Shown here: positions 14,010-49,408 of the stretch, in pieces | How the letters are laid out: each line of letters starts with the position of its first letter | How positions within the stretch are numbered: position 1 is the stretch's first letter | Source: Hyphomonadaceae bacterium | Lineage (GTDB): Bacteria; Pseudomonadota; Alphaproteobacteria; Caulobacterales; Aquidulcibacteraceae | Direction: 5' to 3' | Length of the DNA stretch: 64,000 nt | NCBI GenBank assembly: GCA_050246475.1 | Contig: JBFWVZ010000006.1 | Coordinates: forward strand, 83,803 to 147,802 | Program-made: the position numbers and the translations under genes | Notes under the pieces: generated by a model | The model's input: only the letters and a program-made list of their open reading frames with translations | What the model was told of the DNA's origin: nothing | Databases searched by the model: none

Positions 14010-14150
14010 CGCGTCTTCACATCGATTGACGAGCGATGAACGCGATGAGCGCGCGCCGCATGTGAAGCGCGCGCTTCATTCCCGCTTAATCAGAAGCTGG
14101 TTTTGATCCACGCGCGCGCCGCGCGGGGGAAGTGTTTCGTGTATCGCATA

Positions 14151-16337
14151 ATGGCCTGTCTGACAGAGCAGCATGAGCCGTGGCTCATCGTCGTGGCCGG
14201 CCTCGTATGCGCGCTCGCGTGCGTTGGCGCCTTCGTCATCGCCGATCGCGTGTTCGCCGCCGAACCGCAGCGTCGCATGCAATGGGTTCTTCTCGGCGGT
14301 CTGGTTGCCGGCGGCGGCGCCTGGGCCACGCATTTCGTCGCGCAGCTTGCCTACGATCCAGGTTTGCCTGTCGCCTTCGATCTTGCTCTGACTTTGCTGT
14401 CCGCAACTGCCGGCTTTGCGTTGGCGACGCTCGGGTTCTTCATCCTTGCGCGCGCTCAGATGGCTGCCGCGCCTGCGGTCGCAGGCGCCTTCGTGGGCGC
14501 AGGCACGATTGCCTTGCACTATATTGGCATCGCGGGCCTCATCACGGGCGCAACGCAAAGCTGGGCGTTCGATCTTGTCGCGGCCTCCGCCGCACTCAGC
14601 ATCGGTCTTGCCGCCGCCGCCTTTGGGCTCTTCGCCGCGAAGCGCGGCGCGAAACTCGCGACGTTTGGCGCGCCGCTTCTCCTCGTTCTGTCGATCGTCT
14701 CGCTCCATTTCACCGGCATGGGCGCGTTGACCTTGACGCCCGATCCCCGCGCGCCCATCGCCGAAACCGGCGCCGATCGCGTCACCATAGCGCTCATCGT
14801 CTGTTTGGGCGCCGCTGGCGTTATGCTCGCCGCCGCTCTGATTGCGGGGGCCGATCGCCGCATCGCCGCATTGAAGCTCGCTGAGGCGGCGCGCTTTAAG
14901 CGGTTGGCGGACGCCGCCCTCGAAGGCCTCGTCATCCACGACATGGACGTGATCATCGATGCGAACGCGCGTTTCGCCAAGATGGTCGGCCGTGAACTCG
15001 AAACACTGGTCGGTTTGCGCATCGCCGATCTCCTGCCGGACGCAATGCGCCGCCGGGTCGCGGAAATGCGCGCCGATGGGCGTCCCATGTTCGAGGTGAC
15101 GATCCCGAACGGGGAGCAAAGCGTCGAAGTCGAGATTCAGACGCGTCCCTTGAACAGCGAGGAGGGCCTCTGGATCACCTCGGTGCGCGATATCGGCGAA
15201 CGCCGCCGCGCCGAACGCGCCGAGCAAGCCAACGCCGCCAAATCCCAATTCGTCGCCAACATGAGCCACGAATTGCGCACGCCCTTGAACGCGATCATCG
15301 GCTACGCCGAGATCATGGAGGAGGACGCCGACATGCGCGGCGATGCGCCCTCGGCGGGCGACGCCGCCAAGATCAGGAAGGCCGGCCATCATCTGCTTTC
15401 CTTGATCAACGAGATTCTCGATCTCTCGAAGATCGAGGCCGGCCGCATGGAATTGACCATCGCTGATGTCGATCCTGCAGCCATGGCGCGCGAAGCAATG
15501 GACACGATCCGCGCCGCAGCCGAGGAGAAAGGCAACCGGCTCGACGTGATCGTTGAAGGCGAGCCCGGCCTGGTCCGCGCCGATGCGTTCCGCCTGCGCC
15601 AATGTCTGTACAATCTCTTGTCCAATGCCGCGAAGTTCACCGAGCGCGGGCGCGTCGCCGTGCGCGTGCGCAAGGCCGGGGCGCGCGTCGAGATCGCGGT
15701 CGGAGACACCGGCATCGGCATGAACGCCGATCAGCTCGCGCGCCTCTTCCAGCCCTTCGTGCAGGCCGACGCCTCGATCACACGGAAGTTCGGCGGCACG
15801 GGCCTTGGGCTGACGATCACCCGCCGCCTTGCGCAGCTGATGGGCGGCGATGTTTCCGTGAAGAGCCGCCAAGGCCGCGGCTCCGTCTTTGCGCTGAGCT
15901 TGCCGGCCGTGGAGGCCGCGGCCGCCCCGCCGGTGGACGATGCGCGCCCCTACGTCCTCGTCATCGACGACGACGCCGCCACCGTGGAGCTGATCGGCCG
16001 CGTGCTCGATCCCGCGGGCCTCGCCGTACGCGGCGCGAAGAACGCCGAAGAGGGTCTGCGCGCCGCAAAGCTGGGCGAGCCGGCCGCCATCGTTCTCGAC
16101 ATTCACTTGCCTGATCGCTCGGGCTGGGAGCTCTTGGGCGAACTCGCCCACGCCGAGATCGCGCCCATCGTTGTGGTCAGCGTCGATCCCGATCATGCGC
16201 GCGCGAGGGGCGCAGGCGCCTGCGCCTCCTTCCAGAAGCCAGCGGCGCGCGACGAACTCGCAGCCGCGATTTTGCGCCACGCGCGATTCCGCGATGAGCC
16301 GGATTCGGACGATTCCTGGAAAGTCGCCGCCGCTTAG
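14151..16337 (+). CDS. Hybrid sensor histidine kinase: MHYT membrane domain - PAS - HisKA/HATPase - receiver
   Basis: Repeated MHYT-like helices (ATHFVAQLAY, LHYIGIAG, LHFTGMGAL); H-box MSHELRTPLNAIIGY; DTGIGM and GGTGLGL; receiver YVLVIDDD...VLDIHLPD. Start moved to MACLTEQHEPW. Confidence 0.85.
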   Translation: MACLTEQHEPWLIVVAGLVCALACVGAFVIADRVFAAEPQRRMQWVLLGGLVAGGGAWATHFVAQLAYDPGLPVAFDLALTLLSATAGFALATLGFFILARAQMAAAPAVAGAFVGAGTIALHYIGIAGLITGATQSWAFDLVAASAALSIGLAAAAFGLFAAKRGAKLATFGAPLLLVLSIVSLHFTGMGALTLTPDPRAPIAETGADRVTIALIVCLGAAGVMLAAALIAGADRRIAALKLAEAARFKRLADAALEGLVIHDMDVIIDANARFAKMVGRELETLVGLRIADLLPDAMRRRVAEMRADGRPMFEVTIPNGEQSVEVEIQTRPLNSEEGLWITSVRDIGERRRAERAEQANAAKSQFVANMSHELRTPLNAIIGYAEIMEEDADMRGDAPSAGDAAKIRKAGHHLLSLINEILDLSKIEAGRMELTIADVDPAAMAREAMDTIRAAAEEKGNRLDVIVEGEPGLVRADAFRLRQCLYNLLSNAAKFTERGRVAVRVRKAGARVEIAVGDTGIGMNADQLARLFQPFVQADASITRKFGGTGLGLTITRRLAQLMGGDVSVKSRQGRGSVFALSLPAVEAAAAPPVDDARPYVLVIDDDAATVELIGRVLDPAGLAVRGAKNAEEGLRAAKLGEPAAIVLDIHLPDRSGWELLGELAHAEIAPIVVVSVDPDHARARGAGACASFQKPAARDELAAAILRHARFRDEPDSDDSWKVAAA

Positions 16338-25828: not shown

Positions 25829-26185
25829 TCACGCGGCGTGCTTCACGCAATTCTCGTCGTCGAGCAGCACGACGTTGGGCGCATAATTGCGCGCTTGCTC
25901 GGCGGGCAGGTGGCAATAGGCGACGACGATGATCTTGTCGCCCGGCTGCACAAGCCGCGCCGCCGCGCCGTTGACGCCGAACGTCCGGGAGCCTGAGGGC
26001 GCCTCGATCGCGTAGGTCGTGAAGCGCGCCCCTGAATTGATGTTCAGCACGTCCACCTGTTCGTGGGGCAGGATCCCCGCGCGGTCGAGCAGGTCGCGGT
26101 CGATCGCGATCGAGCCTTCATAGTCCAGGTCGGCTTGGGTGACGGTGGCGCGGTGCAGCTTCGCCTTGAGCATCGTCACGAACAT
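25829..26185 (-). CDS. panD: Aspartate 1-decarboxylase
   Basis: [29 protein letters not shown] contains the self-processing Gly-Ser site; GAGGAG lies upstream of ATG 26185. Confidence 0.9.
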
Positions 26186-26318
26186 GCGGGGCGTCTCCTC
26201 TGGGCGGCGTCCCGTGCGCGCTGCAGCGAAATTGCTGCGCCTGCGAACGTCCATTGGAAATAAGCGTTCGCGCGCGCGAAGGCAAGTTTATGAACAGCTC
26301 AGGCGATGCGCCGGCGGA

Positions 26319-28139
26319 TCAATTCGCCTGCGGTTGCCGGAAGACGATCACCAGCCGGGTCTGCGCGCCGCTGGAGCGCGTGCCGTCGTCGAGCTGGGGC
26401 TGCGCCCGGAATTGCGCCGAGGCCCGGAGCGCCGCGGCGCCGAAGCCGAACCCGCCTGGGCTCTCGCCCGCCACGGCGCAGCGCGGCACGCCGGTGGCGT
26501 CGATCAAGCACTCAAGCTCCACGCGCCCGCCCTGATTGGCCCGGAGCGCGCGCGACGGGAAGAGTTCGTTGATCCGCTGCGCGGATGGGCGCGCGGCCCA
26601 CACCACTTGCGGCGGGCGTGTCCGCGCCGGACGCTGCGCCGCGGGCGGCTCGATCGCGGCCGTCTGCATCTGCTGTTGGGTCGGCGGCGCCGGAGTCGGC
26701 TGCAGCTGGATCGGCGCGGGCGCGGGCGACAACGTCACGGGCTGGCGCTCTTCCGCCGCCGGTTGCTGGCGCGCCGGCGCCGGCGTCGTGTCGCGCGTGC
26801 TGGGCAATTCCGGTCCGCCTTGGGCGGTGTCTCTTTGGCGCGGCGGCTCGCGAACGGGCGCGGCGCGCTCAGGCTCGCGGCGCGGCGCGGCGGCAGGCTC
26901 GATCGGCGCTGTCGCGGCGCCCGCGTCGGCGAATGTCGAGGATTCAGCGCTCGTGTCGGCGGCGTCTTCCGCCGCGGGGGGCGCATCGGCCCAGGGATCG
27001 GCCTCGGCTGTTTGCGCGGCGCCGCCGCTCAGGAAGTCGAGCGCGCCGAACCGGTCTCCCGCGAAGAGGCCGGCGCCCAGCGCTGCGCCCCCGAGAATGA
27101 CGATGATCGCCATCATACGGATTCCGCGTCCCCCCGCGCGCGGCGGCGGTCCGCTGTCGCGCCGGGCCGGCAAGCGGGGATCGTCGCGCCAGTCCGCTTG
27201 CTGGGGCGGCGCGGCGCGGCGCGCCTCGCGCCGCGTGGGCGCGTCTGAGCGGATAGGCTCGAAAGCGGCTGGCGGCGGTCTGTTGGCGGGCTGAGGCGTC
27301 GGCGCGCGCGATCGTGCGGGCGCGGCTTCGCCGCGTTGCGGCCGTGTCGGCGGATCGAGCCTCACGGGCGCGCCTCTGAGCGCGTCCTGACGCGCTGCCG
27401 CGGCGGGTGTTTGGCGACGGCGGCGCTGTTCGGCCTCGAGTTCCGCGAGTTTCATTTGCGCCAGCTCGGCGAAGGCGCCGTCGGCCCCGAAATCGGCGAG
27501 GTGCCGAAGAAAATCTTCCGGATTGCGGCTGTGCCGGATCGCGGCCCAGTTCTGCGCTTCGTCCGCGACGCTCCCGCTTGGCGCCGGTGCGGCTGCTCGG
27601 CGCGCCGTCGCGCGGGGCGCATCGTAATTGGGCGGCGGAGGCCGCGAAGGCGCCGCTGCGGGCGGCGCGGCGCGGGCGCGCGCATAAGGCGGCGCGGCCG
27701 GAGGCGGATTGTTGAAATAGGGGGCTGGCGCTTCCGCGGCGCGCGCGCTGACCGGCGCGGCGACGCCTGCCGTCGCGCGTTGCGCGGCGACCATGCGGTC
27801 CACGGCGAAGAAAAGCGGATCGAGCGCGGGATCGTCCGGATCGCCCTGCCAGTGCGAGAGATCGAACGCGGGCGCATGGTTGATCGAGGCCGCCGGCGGC
27901 GGCGCGATGAGGCACGCCACCACGGCCTTGCCCGCATTCACCGCGCGCTGCGCCGCGTCGAGGAAGGCGCGCGAGCGAATTGAGGCCTGGGACCACACGA
28001 CGAGCGCCGCCCCGCAGGCGCGCAAATCTTCAGCGCCGGGGGCGCCCCCGACATGAAGGCCCGCCCGTTCGAACATATCGGCGAATGCTTTCGCCAAAGG
28101 TTCGTCTTCGCGCACACAGACGATAAGCACGTCAGCCAT
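26319..28139 (-). CDS. TIR-like domain / Pro-rich linker / single TM helix / TonB C-terminal domain fusion protein
   Basis: N-terminus ADVLIVCVREDEPLAKAFADMFERAGLHV...ALVVWSQASIRSRAFLDAAQRAVNAGKAVVACLI (TIR_2-like pattern). TM helix MMAIIVILGGAALGAGLFAG. C-terminus FPSRALRANQGGRVELECLIDATGVPRCAV...GFGAAALRASAQFRAQP (TonB_C pattern). Confidence 0.7.
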   Translation of the reverse strand: MADVLIVCVREDEPLAKAFADMFERAGLHVGGAPGAEDLRACGAALVVWSQASIRSRAFLDAAQRAVNAGKAVVACLIAPPPAASINHAPAFDLSHWQGDPDDPALDPLFFAVDRMVAAQRATAGVAAPVSARAAEAPAPYFNNPPPAAPPYARARAAPPAAAPSRPPPPNYDAPRATARRAAAPAPSGSVADEAQNWAAIRHSRNPEDFLRHLADFGADGAFAELAQMKLAELEAEQRRRRQTPAAAARQDALRGAPVRLDPPTRPQRGEAAPARSRAPTPQPANRPPPAAFEPIRSDAPTRREARRAAPPQQADWRDDPRLPARRDSGPPPRAGGRGIRMMAIIVILGGAALGAGLFAGDRFGALDFLSGGAAQTAEADPWADAPPAAEDAADTSAESSTFADAGAATAPIEPAAAPRREPERAAPVREPPRQRDTAQGGPELPSTRDTTPAPARQQPAAEERQPVTLSPAPAPIQLQPTPAPPTQQQMQTAAIEPPAAQRPARTRPPQVVWAARPSAQRINELFPSRALRANQGGRVELECLIDATGVPRCAVAGESPGGFGFGAAALRASAQFRAQPQLDDGTRSSGAQTRLVIVFRQPQAN

Positions 28140-28210
28140 GACGTCTCCGGCGCCCCTGCGGGATCCTGTCCCACGCCCACCATGAACACCCGCGGTCATC
28201 GTCCGCCGGT

Positions 28211-28231
28211 TTATGCAAGAAGGGTGCATAA
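28211..28231. promoter_or_regulatory. Dyad TTATGCA-N7-TGCATAA upstream of the TIR/TonB-like gene
   Basis: Perfect 7-bp inverted repeat, 72-92 nt upstream of ATG 28139, AT-rich in a GC-rich spacer. Confidence 0.3.
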
Positions 28232-28282
28232 CACGCCGGAAGCGAAGGCACAGGGGGGTCTGCCCTTGAAATGCGACAAGAC

Positions 28283-28930
28283 TCAGTCAATTCGCGCAAA
28301 TTCACCTGTATTCGGGTCCATGAGTTCGAGAATCCCGTCGGCGACGCCGAACCGGGCGCCCTCTAACCTTACTTTTCCAGCGTCTAGAGCCGCGCGAATG
28401 AACGGAAATGACGCCAAATTCTCCAGACTGACGCGGATGCTTTCGAATTCCAGAGCCGTGCATGCATCCCCGCGGCTTTGATCTAGGCGCGACTTGGCCG
28501 GCCCCAGCAGCGTAAGCCACGGCGCCAGGAAATCGGTATCCGCAACCGACCCTTCATCGAGCGCCGCCGCCACGCCCCCGCATTGCGCGTGGCCAAGCAC
28601 CAGGATGGTTTCCACCTCAAGCCGGCTCACGGCGAATTCGATGGCCGCGCTCACCCCGTGATAGGCGCCGTCCGCCTGATAGGGCGGCACCAGATTGGCC
28701 ACGTTGCGCACGACGAAGAGCTCCCCGGGCGAGGCGTCGAAGATCGCCGAGGGGTCAACCCGGCTGTCGGAGCACGCGATCACGAGCGTCTTGGGCCGCT
28801 GCCCCTTCGCGAGCTTGCGGTGAAGCGAGGCGAGCCCCGGCCAGCGCTGCTCCCTGAAGCGCCGATAGCCTGCCAGCAAGTCATCCATGCGCCGCCTTGG
28901 AAACCATGCGCGCGTCTGGATCAACCCCAC
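28283..28930 (-). CDS. Beta-class carbonic anhydrase
   Basis: Zinc ligand motifs CSDSRV and GHAQCGG. Confidence 0.9.
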   Translation of the reverse strand: MGLIQTRAWFPRRRMDDLLAGYRRFREQRWPGLASLHRKLAKGQRPKTLVIACSDSRVDPSAIFDASPGELFVVRNVANLVPPYQADGAYHGVSAAIEFAVSRLEVETILVLGHAQCGGVAAALDEGSVADTDFLAPWLTLLGPAKSRLDQSRGDACTALEFESIRVSLENLASFPFIRAALDAGKVRLEGARFGVADGILELMDPNTGEFARID

Positions 28931-29001
28931 GCATCGCGCCGCGATTGCCGCGCACGCCTTGGCGCTTCATTGTGCCGCGCGCGGAAGTGGGGAGAGCGGC
29001 C

Positions 29002-29994
29002 ATGAGCGAAGCGCCAGCATTGAGCGACGCCGAGGCGGTGAAAGCGCAGGGCCTGCGCGGCATTGCGTTCGACGCATTCAAGAAGCGCGAACCGGGCGGC
29101 GTGATCCTGCAGGCCACGCTCGGGCTCATCCTGATCGTCGCCGTGATTGTTGGCCTCTTCGGTTTCATCGGATGGCGCAGCGTCGTCGATTACATGCAAT
29201 GGGTCGCTCAGATCACAGCGGCGCAGCAGCAAGACCCGTCCGCCGCACTTGCGCCGGGCGCTATGATGCCCCCGGCGTCCGTCATGATGGCCGGCAATCT
29301 CTTATTCGTCGTTCAGCTCGTTCTCTACATTGTCATCGCCGCCTACGAGGCCGCGATCCTGCGCTGGCTGACGCGCGGCGAGCGCGGCGGCGTCTTTCTG
29401 GGCTTAGGCTTCGGCGCCGACACCTGGTACGTCTGGTTCAGCTACTGGATCTGGTACTTCCTCGTCTTCGGCGTCTTTCTAGCGGTCTTGTTCGTCGGCC
29501 TGATCATCGGCGCCGTCATGGCCGCGGCACAGATGAGCGCGGCCGTCATCGCGGCGGCGATGGGGCTGTTGGGCCTCGCGATCGTCGTTGGGTGCATTTA
29601 CTTCGCCGTGCGTCTGGCGCCGGCGGCCGCAACGAGCGTCATCCTGCGGCGCTTCGCGTTCTTCGACGCTCTCAAGGTCACCCGCGATCGCTTTTGGCCG
29701 GTTTTTGGCGCGTTTCTCGTCATCGTGCTTTTGAGCTTCGTCACGGCTGCGCTGGCGGCGGGCGTCGGCGCAGTCACTTTGCTCGCCGAGCTCATCGCCG
29801 GCCTCGCAAATGACAGCGGCCAGCCCGATCCGGCCGCGACGATGGCGCTCGTTTTCTCGCCAGCGATGATCGCGCGCTGGGGCGTGCTCTACCTCGTATT
29901 GTTGCTGCTCCAGCTTATATGGACGATCGCGACCTATGGTCTGAACGCGCGCGCCGCCAAGCTTGCGCTGGCCGAGGGCCGCATCGAGAGGTGA
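29002..29994 (+). CDS. Multi-pass membrane protein, family not recognised
   Basis: Start chosen at MSEAPALSD. About 6-7 hydrophobic helices and strong GC3 bias. Confidence 0.55.
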   Translation: MSEAPALSDAEAVKAQGLRGIAFDAFKKREPGGVILQATLGLILIVAVIVGLFGFIGWRSVVDYMQWVAQITAAQQQDPSAALAPGAMMPPASVMMAGNLLFVVQLVLYIVIAAYEAAILRWLTRGERGGVFLGLGFGADTWYVWFSYWIWYFLVFGVFLAVLFVGLIIGAVMAAAQMSAAVIAAAMGLLGLAIVVGCIYFAVRLAPAAATSVILRRFAFFDALKVTRDRFWPVFGAFLVIVLLSFVTAALAAGVGAVTLLAELIAGLANDSGQPDPAATMALVFSPAMIARWGVLYLVLLLLQLIWTIATYGLNARAAKLALAEGRIER

Positions 29995-30000
29995 GAGCGC

Positions 30001-30528
30001 ATGCGCGGACAGGTTTTGGGATTGGATCAGCCGCGCGGCATCGGCGTGCTGGTCGATGCATCGGGTGAGCGTTTGGAGTTCGCACTTGCTGAGTGGCGCT
30101 CGCCAGGTGCGCCTGCGCCGGGCCAGTGGGTCGATTTCGTTCTGGCGGATGGCCAAGCCAAGCAAGTCTTCGCGCTGCCGCCGGGCGCGCCGGGAACGCC
30201 AGCCTACGGCGCCGGACCGGGGCCCGCGCCTGCCGCGCCCACGCCGATGGGCACGATCCTCGGCGCCGTGGCGCTCGGCTGTTTGGTGCTTGGCTTTGTC
30301 ATCCCAATCCTTCCCACCATCGCCGCGCTCGTTCTCGGCATCGTCGGCGCGGGCCGCGCCAAGGAGGAGCGCGACGAAACGGGCCTGACGCTTTCGCGCA
30401 TCGCCTGGATCGCCGCGACCGTTCTGCTTGTCCTGTTCGTGATGATCGCGATCATTGCCGCGCTTTTCTTCGGCGGGCTGATGGGCGTCCTCGGCACGGC
30501 CGGCTGGAACTGGGGCGTCTGGACCTAG
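30001..30528 (+). CDS. Small soluble N-domain plus DUF4190-like double-TM membrane protein
   Basis: Starts 7 nt after the previous gene. Pro/Ala-rich linker, then GTILGAVALGCLVLGFVIPILPTIAALVLGIVGAGRAKE and further helices. Confidence 0.5.
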   Translation: MRGQVLGLDQPRGIGVLVDASGERLEFALAEWRSPGAPAPGQWVDFVLADGQAKQVFALPPGAPGTPAYGAGPGPAPAAPTPMGTILGAVALGCLVLGFVIPILPTIAALVLGIVGAGRAKEERDETGLTLSRIAWIAATVLLVLFVMIAIIAALFFGGLMGVLGTAGWNWGVWT

Positions 30529-43448: not shown

Positions 43449-46400
43449 TTAGAAGCGGTGGTTGAAGTTGAGCTGCAGCGATTGCGTCGAATAATCGTCG
43501 CGATCGAGCTCCGTCGACGCTTCGAGCGACAGCGATGTGTTAGGCCCGAACATGTAGGAGAGGCCGCCCGCGGCTGAGTACCATTCGCGGTCGAGCTCTT
43601 GGCTCATGCTGAAGCCGATCTCCGGCGCCGCGGCGAAGCGTGCGTAGAGATAGTCGCTGCCGTCGCCGATTTCGTTGACCGCCGCGAAGCGGCCATAAGC
43701 AGCGAACGGGCTCGCCCGGCCGTTGCGGATCGGCTGGTACGAGAATTCGAGCGCACTTTCGACGGTCATCGAGGTAAGCGAGCGCTCATCGACCAGCAGG
43801 TCAAAATCGCCGCCGCCGGATTCACGGTAGCCGTCGAAATTGAGATGCGAGTAGTTGAGCGTGATCGTCGGCGAGAGCGTCAGCCCGTTCATTGGGCGGA
43901 ACGTGTAGCCGCCGCGGATGCCCGCGAGAGACTGCACCGCCCCTTGTGTGGACTCGACTTGCTGCAGAGGTCCGCCGGTGAGCAGCGAACGGTTCATCAG
44001 ATAGTCCTGCTGCGCCACGCCGGCATAGGCGTCGGCGAACCAGCCGCCGTGCCACGCCGACGCGTAGGCCATCGCACCGTAGCCGGTGTGATCGAGCGGA
44101 GTCGCGTTCTCGTCACGGACGAGATAGCGCGAAACCGTGCTCGCCACGCCGATCGCGAAATGATCGCTGATGCGATAATCCGCGCCGATCGTCATTGAGG
44201 CCGTGCTCGCTTGCGAGAGCGACGCCGGGTTGAACCGGTCCCCTTGATAAGCCTCTTGGCCGACATCGTTGAGATCGCCTTGGCCCGCGAAGAAAAAGCC
44301 CAGCCGGTCGCCGGTGTCGACACGGCGTGGGCCGTCCTCGCGATAAGAGGCGCTCCACGGGTTGTCTTCTTCCTCGACCGTGCCGCTCAGCATCCGGTAG
44401 CCCGAGAGCAGGCTCCGCTCGCTGATGCCGCGCTGGCCCGCCCGCAATTCGGCCGTGCGTGCAAAAAGATCGCGCGTGAAGCCTTGCGAGTACGAGATCG
44501 CCAGCGGCATTTCGCTGAACACATGCGTCGGCGTCAGCGTCGGCAGGACAAAACCGAGCGTGTCGATCGGCACATTGTCGATCAGATCGAACACGCCCGC
44601 GACGGAACTGTAGTGGCCGTCGAACCGGAGCGAGTCGAGCGCCAGCGCGAGCGAACTCCATTGGCTCCCGTGGAAGAAGTCCCAAACTCTGCGCGCCGAA
44701 ATGCGCAGATCGATCGAGTCCGCATCGGCGATTGTTTCGCCGAAGAGCAGCGTTCCCGAGCCGAGCGTGCGGTCGAAATTGCCGCTGATGCTGTCGGCGT
44801 GGACGACCGTGAAGCGGTCGCCGTAACGCAGCCGCCGGCTTGAATCGACGAGCAGATTGCCCCGCATATCGACATGGCCTTCCACTTCCAGAAGGTCGGT
44901 CGAGTGCCGCCCGATCTGGAAGAGGACGGTGCCGAGGCCGCTCTGCGCATAATCGCCGACGATCGTCAGCGTGCCGATGTCATTGCCGCCGGGCGAGACG
45001 ACCCCAGCCGTGTTCGCGACCCCCGTCATTGCGCGGATGGTTCCCTCGCCAGAGAGGATGCCGAACAGGATGTCGAACCCGAGCGTGTTAAACTCGCCGT
45101 CCACATTGAGCCTGCCCACATCCATGTAGGAGGTGAGGTTGGTTGTCAGCGACGCGTTCGAACGGATGTCCAGCCGCGAGCCGACGCCGCGGATGTTCAG
45201 CCGGTCGATCTCGATGTCGGCGTTGCGCAACGTGAGCGTGCCTGCATTGCGCAGGTTGACTTCGAAATAGCGCGTCGAGTTTTGCAGGCCCGGCGTGCCG
45301 TCGGTGTTGTCAGGCACGAAGTTCGTCGTGCCGGGCCCGGTGAGCGCGCCCGTGCCGACTTGCAGCAAGCCGCCCGTCAGCCAGTCCGCAGTATCTGGCG
45401 GCGGGGGCGGCGGCGGATTGTGGCGCCGTCCCTGTTCTTCGTGCAGAGGCGCTGGCATCGCTGCGGCAGCGGGCGCCGGTTCGGAATTGCCTTCGCCCGG
45501 CACGCACGTGCCAGTCCACGCGCACTCCGCGATCGGGACGGGGTTCGGATTGATCGTTCCGATGTTGTCGGTCGCATCGCTTGAGCCGAGCGCTGGGTCG
45601 TTCGGCAGTCTGTTGCGCAGATCGCCGTGCGAGTTGAGCACATAATAGAGCGGATCGATTTCCTGCACCCACGTGGTCGGATCGGTCCATTCGCGGTTGC
45701 CGCTCCGCGCCTGCACATACTTGTAGGGATTGTTGACGACGATTTGATCCCAGAACAGGAACAGCGGATTCCACCCACCGACGGTCCCGAAGTCAGAGAA
45801 ATTCGGGAAGAACACGAAATTGTCGTCCGGGAAGTTGACGACGTCGTGAAAGAACCGCGACCCCTGGCTCAGCACGCCGAGCGAAACTTCGCGGCCATAC
45901 GCGTCTGTGATGAGCGGCGAGCCGGAATCGCCTGCCGCAGTAATCGCCTCGTTCGCCGTCGGCTCGTCCGGGAAGACGTTGAAATCGAACGTCGTCGTCA
46001 CCCCCGGGTTAGTCGTAAGCAGATCTGCATCGAACGGCCGATTCTGCGGATCGTCGAAATCGATCCAGTAGAGATCCTGATAACTGAAGCCGGGTGGATT
46101 GAAGAGATCCGCGATGTTTTGCGGTTCTGTGCCGTTGTAGAGATCGCGCTCGCTGCCCAGGAAGCCAAGCATGTTGGTGGCGACGCGGCGGAAGAACGTC
46201 TCTTCGACGAGCGAGAGGCGGAACCCTGTGAGACCGTCGCCCGCTTGGCCGTAGCCGCCGATTGTCACCGGCACGAGCCGATCGACCGGTGAGAAGAGAA
46301 GGCCGATGCCGTTCTCGGCGTCGCGGCCAAGCAATTCTGTCGGCGTGTCGAACGCCGCGATCGCAATATCGGCCGGCAGGAAGGCGAACGAATTCGGATC

Positions 46401-46910
46401 CCACAGCGGGCCGAACCGCGAGCGCGGATCGTACCAAACCATGGTCGACTCGACCATCGTGCGCCCGTCTCCTGGCGGTACGGCTGCGCCGACGCCGTCG
46501 GCGACGCGATACTGGAAGAGCCAATTGCGAAGATTGTCACGTCCGAGAAGCGGGTCGGTCGTGTAGCCGACGGAGGCACGGTCTCCCGGTCCGTTGTTGC
46601 CGTCATATTGATCGGGGTTGAGCCCATCGACGCAGTGCGCGGCGAAGAGCACGGTGCGCGGATTGATCAGCAAACCGCTGCAGCTGCCGCCTGTTGCGCC
46701 GGTTTCGCTGCGAATGCCGATGCCGACAAGGTAGGGCCGCGTGTTGTCCTCATCGACAACCTCTGACGGCGGAACGTCGTCGGGCGTGACGACAGCGTGC
46801 GCGCTGCCGCTGAACGCGATCCCTGTGAGGCCGAACAAAAGCGCAAACTTGATCGCCGCGCTTGTAAGCAAGCTATTGCGGCGAACGTTCTTCCCTTTAG
46901 CCATAACCAA
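43449..46910 (-). CDS. Autotransporter with a trypsin-like (S1/PA clan) serine protease passenger
   Basis: Signal peptide; His LFAAHCVDG, Asp ADIAIAAFD, Ser AGDSGSPLI; junction motif GNDIGTLTIVGDY. The C-terminal beta-barrel ends ...LQLNFNHRF (terminal aromatic residue). Confidence 0.8.
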   Translation of the reverse strand: MVMAKGKNVRRNSLLTSAAIKFALLFGLTGIAFSGSAHAVVTPDDVPPSEVVDEDNTRPYLVGIGIRSETGATGGSCSGLLINPRTVLFAAHCVDGLNPDQYDGNNGPGDRASVGYTTDPLLGRDNLRNWLFQYRVADGVGAAVPPGDGRTMVESTMVWYDPRSRFGPLWDPNSFAFLPADIAIAAFDTPTELLGRDAENGIGLLFSPVDRLVPVTIGGYGQAGDGLTGFRLSLVEETFFRRVATNMLGFLGSERDLYNGTEPQNIADLFNPPGFSYQDLYWIDFDDPQNRPFDADLLTTNPGVTTTFDFNVFPDEPTANEAITAAGDSGSPLITDAYGREVSLGVLSQGSRFFHDVVNFPDDNFVFFPNFSDFGTVGGWNPLFLFWDQIVVNNPYKYVQARSGNREWTDPTTWVQEIDPLYYVLNSHGDLRNRLPNDPALGSSDATDNIGTINPNPVPIAECAWTGTCVPGEGNSEPAPAAAAMPAPLHEEQGRRHNPPPPPPPDTADWLTGGLLQVGTGALTGPGTTNFVPDNTDGTPGLQNSTRYFEVNLRNAGTLTLRNADIEIDRLNIRGVGSRLDIRSNASLTTNLTSYMDVGRLNVDGEFNTLGFDILFGILSGEGTIRAMTGVANTAGVVSPGGNDIGTLTIVGDYAQSGLGTVLFQIGRHSTDLLEVEGHVDMRGNLLVDSSRRLRYGDRFTVVHADSISGNFDRTLGSGTLLFGETIADADSIDLRISARRVWDFFHGSQWSSLALALDSLRFDGHYSSVAGVFDLIDNVPIDTLGFVLPTLTPTHVFSEMPLAISYSQGFTRDLFARTAELRAGQRGISERSLLSGYRMLSGTVEEEDNPWSASYREDGPRRVDTGDRLGFFFAGQGDLNDVGQEAYQGDRFNPASLSQASTASMTIGADYRISDHFAIGVASTVSRYLVRDENATPLDHTGYGAMAYASAWHGGWFADAYAGVAQQDYLMNRSLLTGGPLQQVESTQGAVQSLAGIRGGYTFRPMNGLTLSPTITLNYSHLNFDGYRESGGGDFDLLVDERSLTSMTVESALEFSYQPIRNGRASPFAAYGRFAAVNEIGDGSDYLYARFAAAPEIGFSMSQELDREWYSAAGGLSYMFGPNTSLSLEASTELDRDDYSTQSLQLNFNHRF

Positions 46911-47043
46911 ACCCCTCGCTTGTGACAGGCGTCCTGTCAGCGGGGTGGTTCGCCGGAAAGCCGTTCTCGAGTTCCCTCGGGCGGCCTTCTAGCCCACCTC
47001 TCCTCGGACGCTTGAAGCCACGCTAGGCCCGTATCGCCCCGTT

Positions 47044-47078
47044 AACAATATGGCGCTCCCGCCACATTGTTGTTTTTT
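47044..47078 (+). terminator. Orphan intrinsic-terminator-like hairpin in a divergent intergenic region
   Basis: AACAATATGGCG-CTCC-CGCCACATTGTT (12 bp, one A-C mismatch), then G + T6. No plus-strand gene lies upstream. Confidence 0.45.
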
Positions 47079-47230
47079 CGTCGTGCCTCTTGGTTGAACC
47101 GTCGCGCGCTTATCGCGCGTGCGGTGAATCGCAGCCGCCGCCGCATCGTCGCCCCAAACATGAAGCGGAAGAAAGGCTGGCGGTTTTGCACGTCCTCCCG
47201 GCTTGGTAGGGTCGCCGCTCTTGCGAGGAG

Positions 47231-49408
47231 TTGAAAATGGGTGGGGCCCGCTTCTGGGCGGCGCTGGTCTTTTGTGTGGGCGCGGCCGCGTGCGGCGCTC
47301 GCGAGACCGCGCGCGTCGAAGCGGAGGGACCCCTTATTCCGCGTTCGGAGCTTTTCGCCGATGCGCCGCGCGCGCGCCCCGCGTTGAATCCGCAGGGCGA
47401 CCGCCTGGCGTTTTTGGCGCCGCGGGCGCCTGGTGGTCCGCTTGCCGTCTTCGTGGCCGATCCCGCGGCACTGGGGGCGGCGCGGCTCGTCGCGGGCGCT
47501 GAAGGGCCGGTCGCGGACTTCGCGTGGGCCGCGGGCGGTCGCCACATTCTCTACACCCTCGACATTGCGGGGCGTCGCGGCCTGCGCGCCGCAATGGTCG
47601 AAGGTGAGCCGCAAGCGCGAACGCTGACGCCGGAGAGCGCCGGCGCCGAGATTGTCGCCATGAGCCCGGCGGAGCCGAACATCGTTCTCGTCGCGGTCAG
47701 TGACAGAGAGGCCGGCTGGCCCGATCTCCATCGTATCGACATCGCGACCGGTGAGAGCACGCGTCTGGATCGCAACACGCGCCGCATCGTTCGTTATATC
47801 GCGGATCGCCAGAACGAACTGCGTCTGGGCCTGGCCGCGCGCGCCGACGGCGGCATCGATGTGCTGGTGCGCGAGCGTGGCGCGTGGCGCGCGCAGCCGC
47901 TTTTCTCGGTCGCCTACGAGGATGCGCCCTTCCTCTCGATCGTGTCGTTCGGCGCCGACGGGCGCAGCTTCCTGATGCTGGATTCGACCAATCGCCAACA
48001 CGCCGGGCTCTTCCGTGTCGATGCCGAGACGGGTGAGCGCACGCTGGTCGCCGGCAGCGAGCGCGCCGACGTCGTGAGCGTCTGGCTTCACCCCTTGACG
48101 CGCGCGCCCGAGGCGTTCGTGACCGAATATCTGCGCCGCGAATGGCGCGCGCTGGAGCCCGCCGCACAGGCCGATCTCGATTTCTTTGCGGCGCAGGGCG
48201 TAGGCGATCTGCGTGTTCTCGATCGCACGCGGGAGGATCGCCGCTGGTTGGTGGTCGCCGAAAGTCCCGCCGCGCCGCCGCGCTACTTCCTCTATGACCG
48301 ACCGATCGGGCAGGAAGCGCGCGCGCGCGCGTTGACGCCGCTCTTCAGCGAACGCCCCGCATTGGCTGAGCGCACGCTGCAACCGATGGCGCCCGTTGAG
48401 ATCCCCGCGCGCGACGGGCGCACGCTCGTCTCTTACCTCACGCTGCCCAGAGGCGCCGACGCCAACGGCGACAGCCGCCCCGATCGTCCGCTGTCGCTCG
48501 CCGTCATCGTGCATGACGGGCCATGGTCGCGCGCTTCCTACGCGTTCGATGCGATGCATCAATGGCTGGCCAATCGCGGTTACGCAGTGCTGAGCGTGAA
48601 CTATCGCGGCTCGACGGGCTTTGGCCGCGCCTTCGCGGCCGCGGGCGATCGCGAATGGGGCCGCGCCATGCAGAGCGACCTCGTCGATGCCGCGAACTGG
48701 GCCGCCGACCAGCGTATCGCCATCGAAGGACGCATCGCGCTCATCGGGGAGGGCTACGGCGGATACGCCGCACTGATGGGCGTTTCGGATGCGCCGGGAA
48801 TTTTTTCCTGCGCCGTCGCCGCCGCGCCGATCCTCAATCTTGAAGCCTGGCGCCGCCCTGAGGCTTCCCTCGGTCTGCGTGCGGCGCTCGCCGCGCGCGT
48901 CTCCGAGCGGGCGGCCCTTCCGCGCCCTCAATCCATCCGGGGCCTGACGATCATCGCACAGGGGGCGCGCGATCCGCGCTTCCCGCGCGCTGCCGCGGAC
49001 GCCTTCGCTGCGAACCTGCGCACGCGCAACATTCCCTACACGTTGCTTTTCTATCCCGACGAGGGCGCTTCGCTCGCTCGCGGCGCGAACCGCATATCGT
49101 TCTACGCCGCCGCCGAGCAGATGCTGGCCGATCCCCAATGCCTCGGCGGGCCCGCGCAAGGCCTGTCGCGCGAGGACTTCTCTGGATCGAGCGCACAGCT
49201 CATCGCCGGCGGCGCGCGCATCGAAGGGTTGGGACGCTTTGCTCCGCCGCAGCGTGTCGCCGCGCGTCCGCGGGGACGGCCCGTCATGGCGCCGGCGCAG
49301 GCTGATGCGTTGATCGAAGAACAGCAGCGCCAGCGCGATGTGCCTATCGCCACGCGCCGCCCCCAATCGCCGGCACGCGAAACGGCCAAGCCCGCCGACG
49401 CAAACTAA
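47231..49408 (+). CDS. S9 (prolyl oligopeptidase / acylaminoacyl-peptidase) family homolog lacking the catalytic Ser and His
   Basis: Signal peptide, beta-propeller, then an alpha/beta domain (VHDGPW...RGYAVLSVNYRGSTGFG). The nucleophile elbow reads GEGYGG instead of GxSYGG (codon 48752-48754 = Gly). The His motif reads YPDEGAS instead of DEGHG (49067-49069 = Ala). The Asp is kept (QGARDPRF). Confidence 0.8.
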   Translation: MKMGGARFWAALVFCVGAAACGARETARVEAEGPLIPRSELFADAPRARPALNPQGDRLAFLAPRAPGGPLAVFVADPAALGAARLVAGAEGPVADFAWAAGGRHILYTLDIAGRRGLRAAMVEGEPQARTLTPESAGAEIVAMSPAEPNIVLVAVSDREAGWPDLHRIDIATGESTRLDRNTRRIVRYIADRQNELRLGLAARADGGIDVLVRERGAWRAQPLFSVAYEDAPFLSIVSFGADGRSFLMLDSTNRQHAGLFRVDAETGERTLVAGSERADVVSVWLHPLTRAPEAFVTEYLRREWRALEPAAQADLDFFAAQGVGDLRVLDRTREDRRWLVVAESPAAPPRYFLYDRPIGQEARARALTPLFSERPALAERTLQPMAPVEIPARDGRTLVSYLTLPRGADANGDSRPDRPLSLAVIVHDGPWSRASYAFDAMHQWLANRGYAVLSVNYRGSTGFGRAFAAAGDREWGRAMQSDLVDAANWAADQRIAIEGRIALIGEGYGGYAALMGVSDAPGIFSCAVAAAPILNLEAWRRPEASLGLRAALAARVSERAALPRPQSIRGLTIIAQGARDPRFPRAAADAFAANLRTRNIPYTLLFYPDEGASLARGANRISFYAAAEQMLADPQCLGGPAQGLSREDFSGSSAQLIAGGARIEGLGRFAPPQRVAARPRGRPVMAPAQADALIEEQQRQRDVPIATRRPQSPARETAKPADAN

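Follow-up and report, generated by a model that had tools for sequence, protein, structure and literature searches.

In the 64,000-nucleotide window of DNA from a Hyphomonadaceae bacterium that was analysed here (contig JBFWVZ010000006.1), an uninterrupted open reading frame (ORF) on the minus strand, at 26319..28139 with its stop codon at 26319-26321, encodes a protein of 606 amino acids that combines a TIR-like domain, a single transmembrane helix and a TonB C-terminal domain (TonB_C). The gene was delimited from the ORF and its translation, from its homologues and from alignment A4; all parts of it described below lie on the same strand. The first-pass annotation, made from the sequence alone, had read the product as five parts, these being a TIR-like domain, a low-complexity region with one helical island, a hydrophobic helix, a Pro-rich spacer and a TonB_C-like domain, and all five were found in that order with coordinates within a codon or two of those first given. 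The membrane protein is genuine and is conserved in a single group of bacteria from soil and fresh water, with more than 250 full-length homologues and, in the family as a whole, three conserved blocks plus syntenic context. Both domains are well known; what is new is their combination, the loss of the hallmark motifs of both and the status of the gene as a core gene. In the sources of the homologues, the two halves are annotated automatically and independently of each other; the names given are 'energy transducer TonB', 'protein TonB' and 'hypothetical protein', with a single case of 'toll/interleukin-1 receptor domain-containing protein'.

The start codon is the ATG at 28139. The M-A-D-V position is the start in 118 of the 120 listed homologues, the two exceptions (P0008 and P0093) being fragments, and a Shine-Dalgarno sequence, GGAG, can be read at 28145-28148 (minus strand), 5 nucleotides (nt) before the ATG. 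Across 74 orthologous upstream regions, GGAG followed after 4-9 nt by ATG is present in 69. An in-frame ATG at 28229, which would add 30 residues, was considered as the start and is excluded by the starts of the homologues and by the GGAG at the 28139 ATG. The same two lines of evidence place the start ahead of the TIR-like segment and not downstream of it, as the first-pass annotation had allowed it might be. It could be argued that the whole gene is an artefact, whether a mis-called start, a fused gene pair or a chance GC-rich ORF, since, at 64-75 % GC, both strands of the window carry numerous long spurious ORFs. This has next to no probability and is already refuted by the conservation data: the same full-length architecture is seen in the homologues noted above, from independent assemblies that include complete genomes, the start is conserved with its Shine-Dalgarno sequence, and the three blocks fold with high confidence in the structure models.

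The GC content inside the gene is 72-75 % (window 26000-28000), compared with about 64 % in the flanks. This is due to the Pro, Ala, Arg and Gly codons of the linkers, not to foreign origin. Many long spurious ORFs arise in the other frames of this GC-rich stretch, and the only tandem repeats within the gene are trivial GC-rich runs.

The N-terminal TIR-like domain

Residues 1-122 (27774..28139) were identified by profile comparison, AlphaFold2 and Foldseek as a degenerate TIR domain, predicted to be cytoplasmic. Searches of family databases did not identify it: the isolated N-terminal domain scores 21.5 bits against Pfam TIR_2, below the gathering score of 28, and there is no match to it in NCBIfam, nor among the PDB sequences searched with phmmer. 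When 1.84 billion cluster representatives were searched exhaustively with phmmer, using residues 1-130 as the query, 303 proteins matched at E≤1e-3, of which 120 reached E≤1e-10; in almost every one of the 303, the matching region lies at the N-terminus or close to it. Towards its weak end, this list merges into classical bacterial TIR_2 proteins (...FISY.RED...VWWD...LWS..S..WVRDEA...). Among 139 representative relatives, 36 match Pfam TIR_2, the lowest E being 5e-42, and six touch Pfam ThsB_TIR. Word-indexed searches, with the N-terminal domain or with the family profile described next, returned close fragments only.

Two profiles were compared, one built from 48 N-terminal domains of the query type (A2) and the other from ten relatives that carry the catalytic Glu of TIR enzymes (A5). 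They align in hhalign with a probability of 99.8 % and E 1.9e-30 over 131 columns, and A5 in turn matches the solved TIR domains 7uxr, PdTIR (3h16), SARM1 and AbTir, down to E 4.5e-11. An AlphaFold2 model based on A2 has an alternating strand-helix fold, with a mean predicted local distance difference test score (pLDDT) of 92.7 and a predicted template modelling score (pTM) of 0.85. The top Foldseek matches of this model in the PDB are 5for, RUN1, SNC1, SARM1, MyD88, MAL and the SPARTA TIR-APAZ protein, at TM-scores of 0.45-0.67, with a few non-TIR flavodoxin-like folds interspersed in the list. By sequence profile and predicted structure, the N-terminal 122 residues are thus shown to be a true TIR homologue, because of the homology chain through the Glu-bearing relatives and the predicted fold, and not because of Pfam, where the score is below threshold. 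The original call of about 115 TIR_2-like residues therefore stands, even though the Pfam search proposed as a check on it fell short and the homology had to be secured through the chain of profiles. A receiver domain, suggested by a weak match of A2 to a response regulator in the PDB (45 residues, E 0.031), was rejected, since hhalign and Foldseek indicate TIR.

The domain includes a post-TIR motif, FDLSxWxGDPxDPxLDPLFFAVDRMV (residues 92-117, 27789..27866), which spans a strand and the start of the long C-terminal helix, modelled as residues 104-126. Within it, W97 is present in all 124 sequences compared and G99 in 120 of them. The DLxxWxGD part is common to the Glu-bearing relatives.

In AbTir, W204 and E208 of the WxxxE motif bind a substrate analogue, and the Glu of this motif is reported to be critical for nearly all TIR NAD+ hydrolases (PMC10641520). 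In the protein investigated here, the position of that Glu, as determined from MAFFT and hhalign columns, is occupied by Ala62 (codon 27954..27956). The alpha-C stretch reads A58-F-L-D-A62, so that the Trp position, residue 58, is also Ala. Across 124 aligned N-terminal domains, the Glu column holds Ala in 85, Val in 13, Thr in 7 and Glu in 6, all six of the last being canonical relatives, and the Trp column holds Ala in 45, Pro in 16, Leu in 12 and Trp in 5. The Asp noticed earlier one position off the expected Glu is Asp61. The canonical relatives have this Asp as well, adjacent to the Glu itself (WVRDEA), which makes it a conserved residue in its own right rather than a catalytic acid that has shifted. 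In addition, the segment that includes the WWD motif and the BB loop has 20 residues here and 31 in the canonical relatives, and hhalign places a 10-column gap opposite 'WWD..G..y', this segment being 10-11 residues shorter. With the Trp and the Glu of WxxxE and 10 residues of the BB-loop region lost, the domain is very unlikely, as judged from these alignments, to cleave NAD+, in agreement with the suspicion of a non-catalytic domain raised at first.

The Glu-bearing TIR_2 relatives (P0273, P0276, P0278 and P0283-P0288) are presumably active. They share the post-TIR DLxxWxGD, and several of them have a WRxIxxSxDP helical motif together with at least one membrane helix, or TPR repeats. The family with the dead TIR domain seems to have arisen from these, its enzymatic sister group.

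When the protein is set beside the TIR_2 NAD+ hydrolases (AbTir, PdTIR and BtpA/TcpB) and the Glu-bearing, membrane-associated TIR_2 relatives P0273, P0278 and P0283-P0288, the domain is homologous and has the same N-terminal position, and the closest of the Glu-bearing relatives have in common with it both the post-TIR DLxxWxGD and a WRxIxxSxDP helical motif. It differs from them in the absence of the WxxxE Trp and Glu, in the deletion of 10 WWD/BB-loop residues, in the sub-threshold Pfam score and in the fusion to TonB_C. Likewise, the TIR fold is shared with Thoeris ThsB and other defence TIR proteins, but here there is no PADLOC match, no partner effector gene nearby and no catalytic Glu, and the gene has a core-genome location. 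A membrane-anchored TIR effector, acting against phage or by depletion of NAD+, is suggested by the common occurrence of bacterial TIR domains as NADases in defence systems and by the similar N-terminal layout of the Glu-bearing relatives. Such a role is nevertheless highly improbable, given the missing catalytic Glu and WxxxE Trp and the deleted BB-loop region, the empty PADLOC search (no match at E≤10), the core-genome synteny with housekeeping genes in 81 loci and a very high conservation that is unlike that of fast-evolving defence genes. The empty PADLOC search and the housekeeping neighbourhood, conserved across these 81 loci, also agree with the initial impression that this is not a defence island.

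Membrane anchor and TonB C-terminal domain

A full-length structure model was built on 43 family members, and the regions between its confident elements are rich in Pro, Ala and Arg and have low model confidence. The TIR-like domain is followed by a first cytoplasmic linker (residues 123-188, 27576..27773) with 36 % Ala, 27 % Pro and 11 % Arg, which is predicted to be disordered, with pLDDT below 50 and a mean pairwise identity of 0.39. Next is a conserved helical module (residues 189-256, 27372..27575) with the motif EAxxWxxIRxSxxPxxF...GxxGAFAExA. It is modelled as helices 190-201, 207-217, 224-242 and 245-255 at pLDDT 93-97; E194, W198, I201, R202, S204 and F210 are invariant, and there is no Pfam match to the module at E≤10. 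A similar motif, WRxIxxSxDP, is found in the Glu-bearing TIR relatives, and the module therefore belongs to the ancestral layout of TIR domain plus anchor. A second cytoplasmic linker (residues 257-336, 27132..27371), with 25 % Pro, 20 % Arg and 19 % Ala, leads to the membrane.

Based on hydropathy, flanking charges and a model helix at 338-359, residues 337-361 (IRMMAIIVILGGAALGAGLFAG, 27057..27131) are a single transmembrane helix. It contains the sole 19-residue window above 1.6 on the Kyte-Doolittle scale in the protein, and its small residues A353 and G357 are conserved. According to the positive-inside rule, the flank rich in Lys and Arg is cytoplasmic. On average, 3.9 of the 20 residues that precede the helix are Lys or Arg, compared with 0.35 of the 20 that follow it. 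Because the Lys/Arg-rich flank precedes the helix, the N-terminus is predicted to be cytoplasmic and the C-terminus outside. This would make the product a single-pass protein of the inner membrane, with the TIR-like domain in the cytoplasm, as had been assumed at the outset, and TonB_C in the periplasm.

Beyond the helix is a periplasmic spacer rich in Pro and Ala (residues 362-509, 26613..27056; 24 % Ala, 18 % Pro), predicted to be disordered. These 148 residues are the least conserved part of the protein (identity 0.27) and have no secondary structure in the model. They are followed by a bona fide TonB C-terminal domain (residues 510-603, 26331..26612), identified by Pfam, NCBIfam, Foldseek and a profile search. 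The match to Pfam TonB_C (PF03544) has 27.3-30.3 bits, where the gathering score is 24.6, and the match to NCBIfam tonB_Cterm (TIGR01352) has 29.1, where the cut-off is 27.1. The alpha/beta domain at 510-600 is modelled at pLDDT 95-98, and its top Foldseek matches are the TonB C-terminal domains 1u07, 2gsk, 7zc8, 9ddz and 6i97 (TMt 0.66-0.73), the matches including TonB C-terminal domains solved in complex with BtuB and FoxA. The family profile also matches the C-terminal domain of Vibrio TonB2 (2k9k) at E 4.2e-5. The (Y/F)PxRA motif is present. Cys544 and Cys554, on adjacent strands, are invariant, and this pair fits an oxidising, periplasmic location. The TonB_C-like domain of the first reading is thus established by scores above both curated cut-offs and by the TonB fold.

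Canonical TonB has only a few cytoplasmic residues. Here, about 340 residues precede the helix, compared with a handful in TonB. The TonB/TolA transducers (E. coli TonB, HasB, FusB and Vibrio TonB2) share with this protein a single membrane helix, a Pro-rich spacer and TonB_C; the approximately 340 cytoplasmic residues, the absence of Ser-x3-His, the apparent absence of a conserved D-box, and the Cys pair in the C-terminal domain are points of difference, as are the lack of exbBD among the window ORFs scanned and the dispensability of TonB_C in an orthologue that does not have it (see below).

In TonB and TolA, the Ser-x3-His of the anchor contacts conserved residues of ExbB and TolQ. TonB makes this contact through Ser16 and His20, of which the His is reportedly essential (PMC12215075). 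None of 139 family transmembrane helices has the SxxxH motif, and any His within six residues either side of the helix is found in only two of the 139. The helix of this protein is free of His, as had been noticed, and the absence of SxxxH extends to the family. The D-box is a short, beta-prone, Pro-flanked motif just after the TonB anchor that binds ExbD (PMC10907165). No conserved block follows the helix in A4 and no strand is seen there in the model, although this motif is short and loosely defined and the test is a weak one. No exbB, exbD or TonB-dependent receptor genes were found among the window ORFs scanned.

It is in principle conceivable that the protein is a working TonB paralogue that energises TonB-dependent transporters through an ExbBD-type motor, the TIR-like extension serving to regulate or cluster it. 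A TonB_C domain above curated cut-offs, with the TonB fold and the (Y/F)PxRA motif, and a Pro-rich periplasmic spacer like that of TonB would be expected of such a protein. Several sources also name relatives 'energy transducer TonB', and a distant orthologue (in L084) adjoins a TonB-dependent receptor gene. Set against these are the 139 anchor helices that all lack SxxxH, with its reportedly essential His, the apparent lack of a conserved D-box-like strand, the absence of motor and receptor genes from the ORFs scanned, and the behaviour of TonB_C itself, which is less conserved than the TIR-like domain and is missing from the syntenic orthologue P0230. A TonB paralogue of this kind is therefore rather unlikely.

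A TonB-like protein with another role is known. SjdR (formerly TonB1) of Anabaena is involved in the septal envelope structure and not in siderophore transport (PMC8262864). Among TonB_C proteins without energy transduction it offers the closest functional parallel, although no TIR-like domain has been reported in SjdR, it comes from another phylum, and the comparison made here covers TonB_C.

Literature searches on TIR with TonB and on TIR_2 with TonB_C found no paper describing the fusion, and TIR is not mentioned in a 2025 survey of TonB/TolA evolution. In the literature searched, the architecture is therefore not an already characterised class of TonB paralogue, as the first-pass annotation had considered it might prove to be.

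Conservation and genomic setting

Comparison of the 43 family members gives a mean pairwise identity of 0.81 for the TIR-like domain, 0.59 for the helical module, 0.57 for the membrane helix and for TonB_C, and 0.27-0.44 for the linkers, making the TIR-like domain the most conserved part of the protein. A syntenic orthologue, P0230 (L085:6001-7272, 423 amino acids), has the TIR-like domain, the helix and a Pro-rich tail, without TonB_C. Its genomic position matches, with the gene, panD, TadG and Band_7, and the TonB_C module has therefore been lost or swapped during evolution. P0235, P0237, P0241 and P0244 have the same build without TonB_C, synteny being established for P0230 only. Combined with the difference in identity (0.81 against 0.57) and with the other periplasmic tails of relatives, P0230 argues that the dead TIR domain and the membrane anchor are the constant unit, and probably the functional core, of the protein, with TonB_C as one of several outer modules.

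One class of paralogues, of 270-330 amino acids, consists of P0191 (L086:6001-6984), P0177, P0204, P0242, P0248, P0250, P0253 and P0255. These have a dead TIR domain and one helix, followed by a periplasmic tail in which a G(R/L/V)EPPSA motif recurs. In L086, the P0191 gene adjoins an HTH_31/MLTR_LBD regulator gene.

A soluble paralogue with the TIR domain only (MADVLFVFVRED...) is about 172 amino acids long (207 in L076) and about 50 % identical to the domain studied here. It was found at L075:1493-2014, L076:6001-6624, L078:600-1121, L079:6001-6519 and L080:6001-6522, and the L079 copy shares a contig with the main gene (L032). This paralogue is a possible partner for TIR-TIR contacts. Just downstream of it (e.g. 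L079:6816-7769), all five of these loci have a small conserved ORF (MNKHDPGGPEAKIHYGDNEVTILKQGLYV...), which in L079 is followed by a gene for an exported protein that by eye looks M23 peptidase-like.

Taxonomic placement was based on the source names and on 80 loci from GTDB-representative genomes, related loci being sought with a closer set of N-terminal domains (A3). The genomes and metagenome-assembled genomes with homologues are labelled Terricaulis, Vitreimonas, Hyphomonadaceae, Caulobacteraceae, Caulobacterales, Candidatus Viadribacter manganicus and alpha proteobacterium U9-1i. A few records are labelled outside the Caulobacterales (Sphingopyxis, Hydrogenophilaceae, Verrucomicrobiae and Binatia), and these labels are suspected to be binning errors in metagenome-assembled genomes. 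The gene is a vertically inherited core gene of Caulobacterales of the Terricaulis, Vitreimonas and Viadribacter type.

Its upstream neighbour is a beta-carbonic anhydrase gene (28283..28930, minus strand; Pfam Pro_CA, E 8e-43) and its downstream neighbour is panD, for aspartate 1-decarboxylase (25829..26254, minus strand; Pfam Asp_decarbox, E 1.3e-47), the Pfam matches bearing out the identities first assigned to both. In 69 of the 81 loci, a beta-carbonic anhydrase gene directly precedes the gene in the same orientation. Downstream, a convergent TadG/VWA gene is found in 57 of these, a Band_7 gene in 48 and carB in 37, while panD is present in only 19 and is absent from many Terricaulis-type loci. 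The order of the gene followed by panD is kept in distant orthologues (panD at L082:8823-9179, L084:5920-6279, L085:7413-7772 and L087:7907-8269), in which the N-terminal domain is 38-45 % identical and most other neighbours differ. Nearby genes in the window include rpoD, dnaG, carA, carB and greA. A functional tie to carbonic anhydrase or to panD was considered; the adjacency is old, the two genes are metabolic and no mechanism is evident.

A possible bridge across the envelope

On this evidence, the explanation that is tentatively favoured, at somewhat less than even odds, is that the protein is a non-enzymatic bridge across the envelope that is not coupled to a motor, in which a scaffold TIR domain is tethered through the membrane to TonB_C. 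That it would not be motor-coupled is suggested by the lack of SxxxH in all 139 anchor helices and, more weakly, by the apparent lack of a conserved beta-prone D-box after the helix. TonB_C would dock by beta-strand addition onto a partner in the outer membrane or periplasm; this might be the cell wall or a strand resembling a TonB box. In the cytoplasm, the scaffold TIR domain and the helical module would hold or nucleate an assembly through TIR-TIR or TIR-partner contacts, and the soluble TIR-only paralogue of the same genomes may be one partner in this assembly. The TIR-like domain and the membrane anchor would then form the functional core, with TonB_C as an exchangeable outer module.

Toll-like receptors, MyD88 and MAL offer a second comparison. 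Their TIR domains are classically scaffolds and not enzymes. The single-pass layout, with a binding module outside and a TIR domain inside, is shared with them, and the TIR filaments of MyD88 and MAL are among the Foldseek matches of the N-terminal domain. The protein is predicted to be N-in, the opposite orientation to Toll-like receptors, it has no leucine-rich repeats and its disordered linkers are very long, and so this is an analogy and not orthology. A receptor encoded by a core gene might nonetheless work by the same logic, periplasmic TonB_C sensing contact with a partner in the outer membrane or cell wall and the scaffold TIR domain clustering and recruiting the TIR-only paralogue; this is given only a small chance. 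It would amount to TIR signalling of the scaffold type in a free-living bacterial clade, in the service of envelope or cell organisation and not of immunity.

More generally, engagement of TonB_C could alter the oligomeric state of the scaffold TIR domain, which would recruit, for example, the TIR-only paralogue, and the reverse direction is conceivable. The parts expected of such a transducer are present, with a binding domain outside the membrane, a single helix across it and, inside, a TIR domain that is non-enzymatic and scaffold-like; the small-xxx-small residues suit packing of the helix, and the TIR-only paralogue is present in the same genomes. It is nevertheless a doubtful reading. 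No effector or regulator is conserved nearby, conformational coupling is hard to picture across more than 200 disordered residues inside and 148 outside, and an orthologue without TonB_C exists. With disordered linkers of such length on either side of the membrane, clustering would be the only plausible route for a signal. The initial proposal that an outer-membrane or periplasmic event is passed to a cytoplasmic effector finds no support here, the orthologue without TonB_C arguing against a TonB_C sensor as the core. The scaffold and receptor readings overlap; what separates them is whether the membrane is crossed by information or by attachment only.

Several observations weigh against the favoured bridge with its scaffold TIR domain. 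The family profile A2 alone matches no solved TIR structure in the PDB, and the Foldseek E-values for the N-terminal domain are only about 1e-3. Position 61 is Asp or Glu in 71 of the 124 sequences, and an acid shifted to this position might in principle support some chemistry, although the canonical relatives carry Asp plus Glu. The absence of SxxxH does not prove that coupling to an ExbBD- or TolQR-type motor is lacking in this clade. No partner gene is conserved beside the gene, its neighbours (carbonic anhydrase and panD) being metabolic, and the proposed mechanism derives from the anatomy of the protein alone.

The bacterial TIR domains that have been studied are mostly NAD+-cleaving enzymes of immunity or virulence, and work on TonB C-terminal domains has dealt nearly exclusively with their role at the end of a proton-driven motor. 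Here, the two modules are in one polypeptide and each is without its usual hallmark, the TIR domain having no catalytic Glu and the anchor no ExbB-contact motif, yet the TIR-like part is kept at 81 % identity in a core gene. If the protein is a scaffold, non-enzymatic TIR domains would have housekeeping roles in bacteria and TonB_C could be a plain docking module, and the family would provide a tractable bacterial model for the origin of a scaffold TIR domain from an enzymatic one. If it is simply a TonB paralogue whose extension is decorative, the significance would be modest. The distribution of the family is narrow.

Upstream of the gene, the rejected ATG at 28229 sits within a conserved non-coding element, CGTGnTAT(G) (28227..28235, minus strand), in which the columns are at least 80 % conserved in a MAFFT alignment of the 74 upstream regions. 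The element resembles an extended -10 sequence and is at most a putative promoter; no sigma-70 site was found by a consensus promoter scan. Boxes of the CtrA, Irr-ICE and RirA types were not found upstream of the gene, in what is a weak test, and there is thus no hint of cell-cycle or iron control. Terminator-like sites are at chance level, with three found and 2.7 expected.

Elsewhere in the window, the carbonic anhydrase gene is adjoined by two genes on the plus strand (28897-29994 and 30001-30528) for predicted membrane proteins without a Pfam family. One of the two, of 175 amino acids, is conserved in 39 of the 81 related loci. Two further long ORFs have no family and are probably spurious. 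The first, of 734 amino acids (14076-16280), lies opposite a gene for a hybrid histidine kinase with MHYT, PAS, HisKA, HATPase and receiver domains (14103-16337, plus strand); the other (47042-49366, minus strand) lies opposite an S9 peptidase gene (47231-49408, plus strand). A gene at 43449-46910 (minus strand) encodes an autotransporter of 1153 amino acids, with a beta-domain at E 1e-33 and a weak trypsin-like match near its N-terminus.

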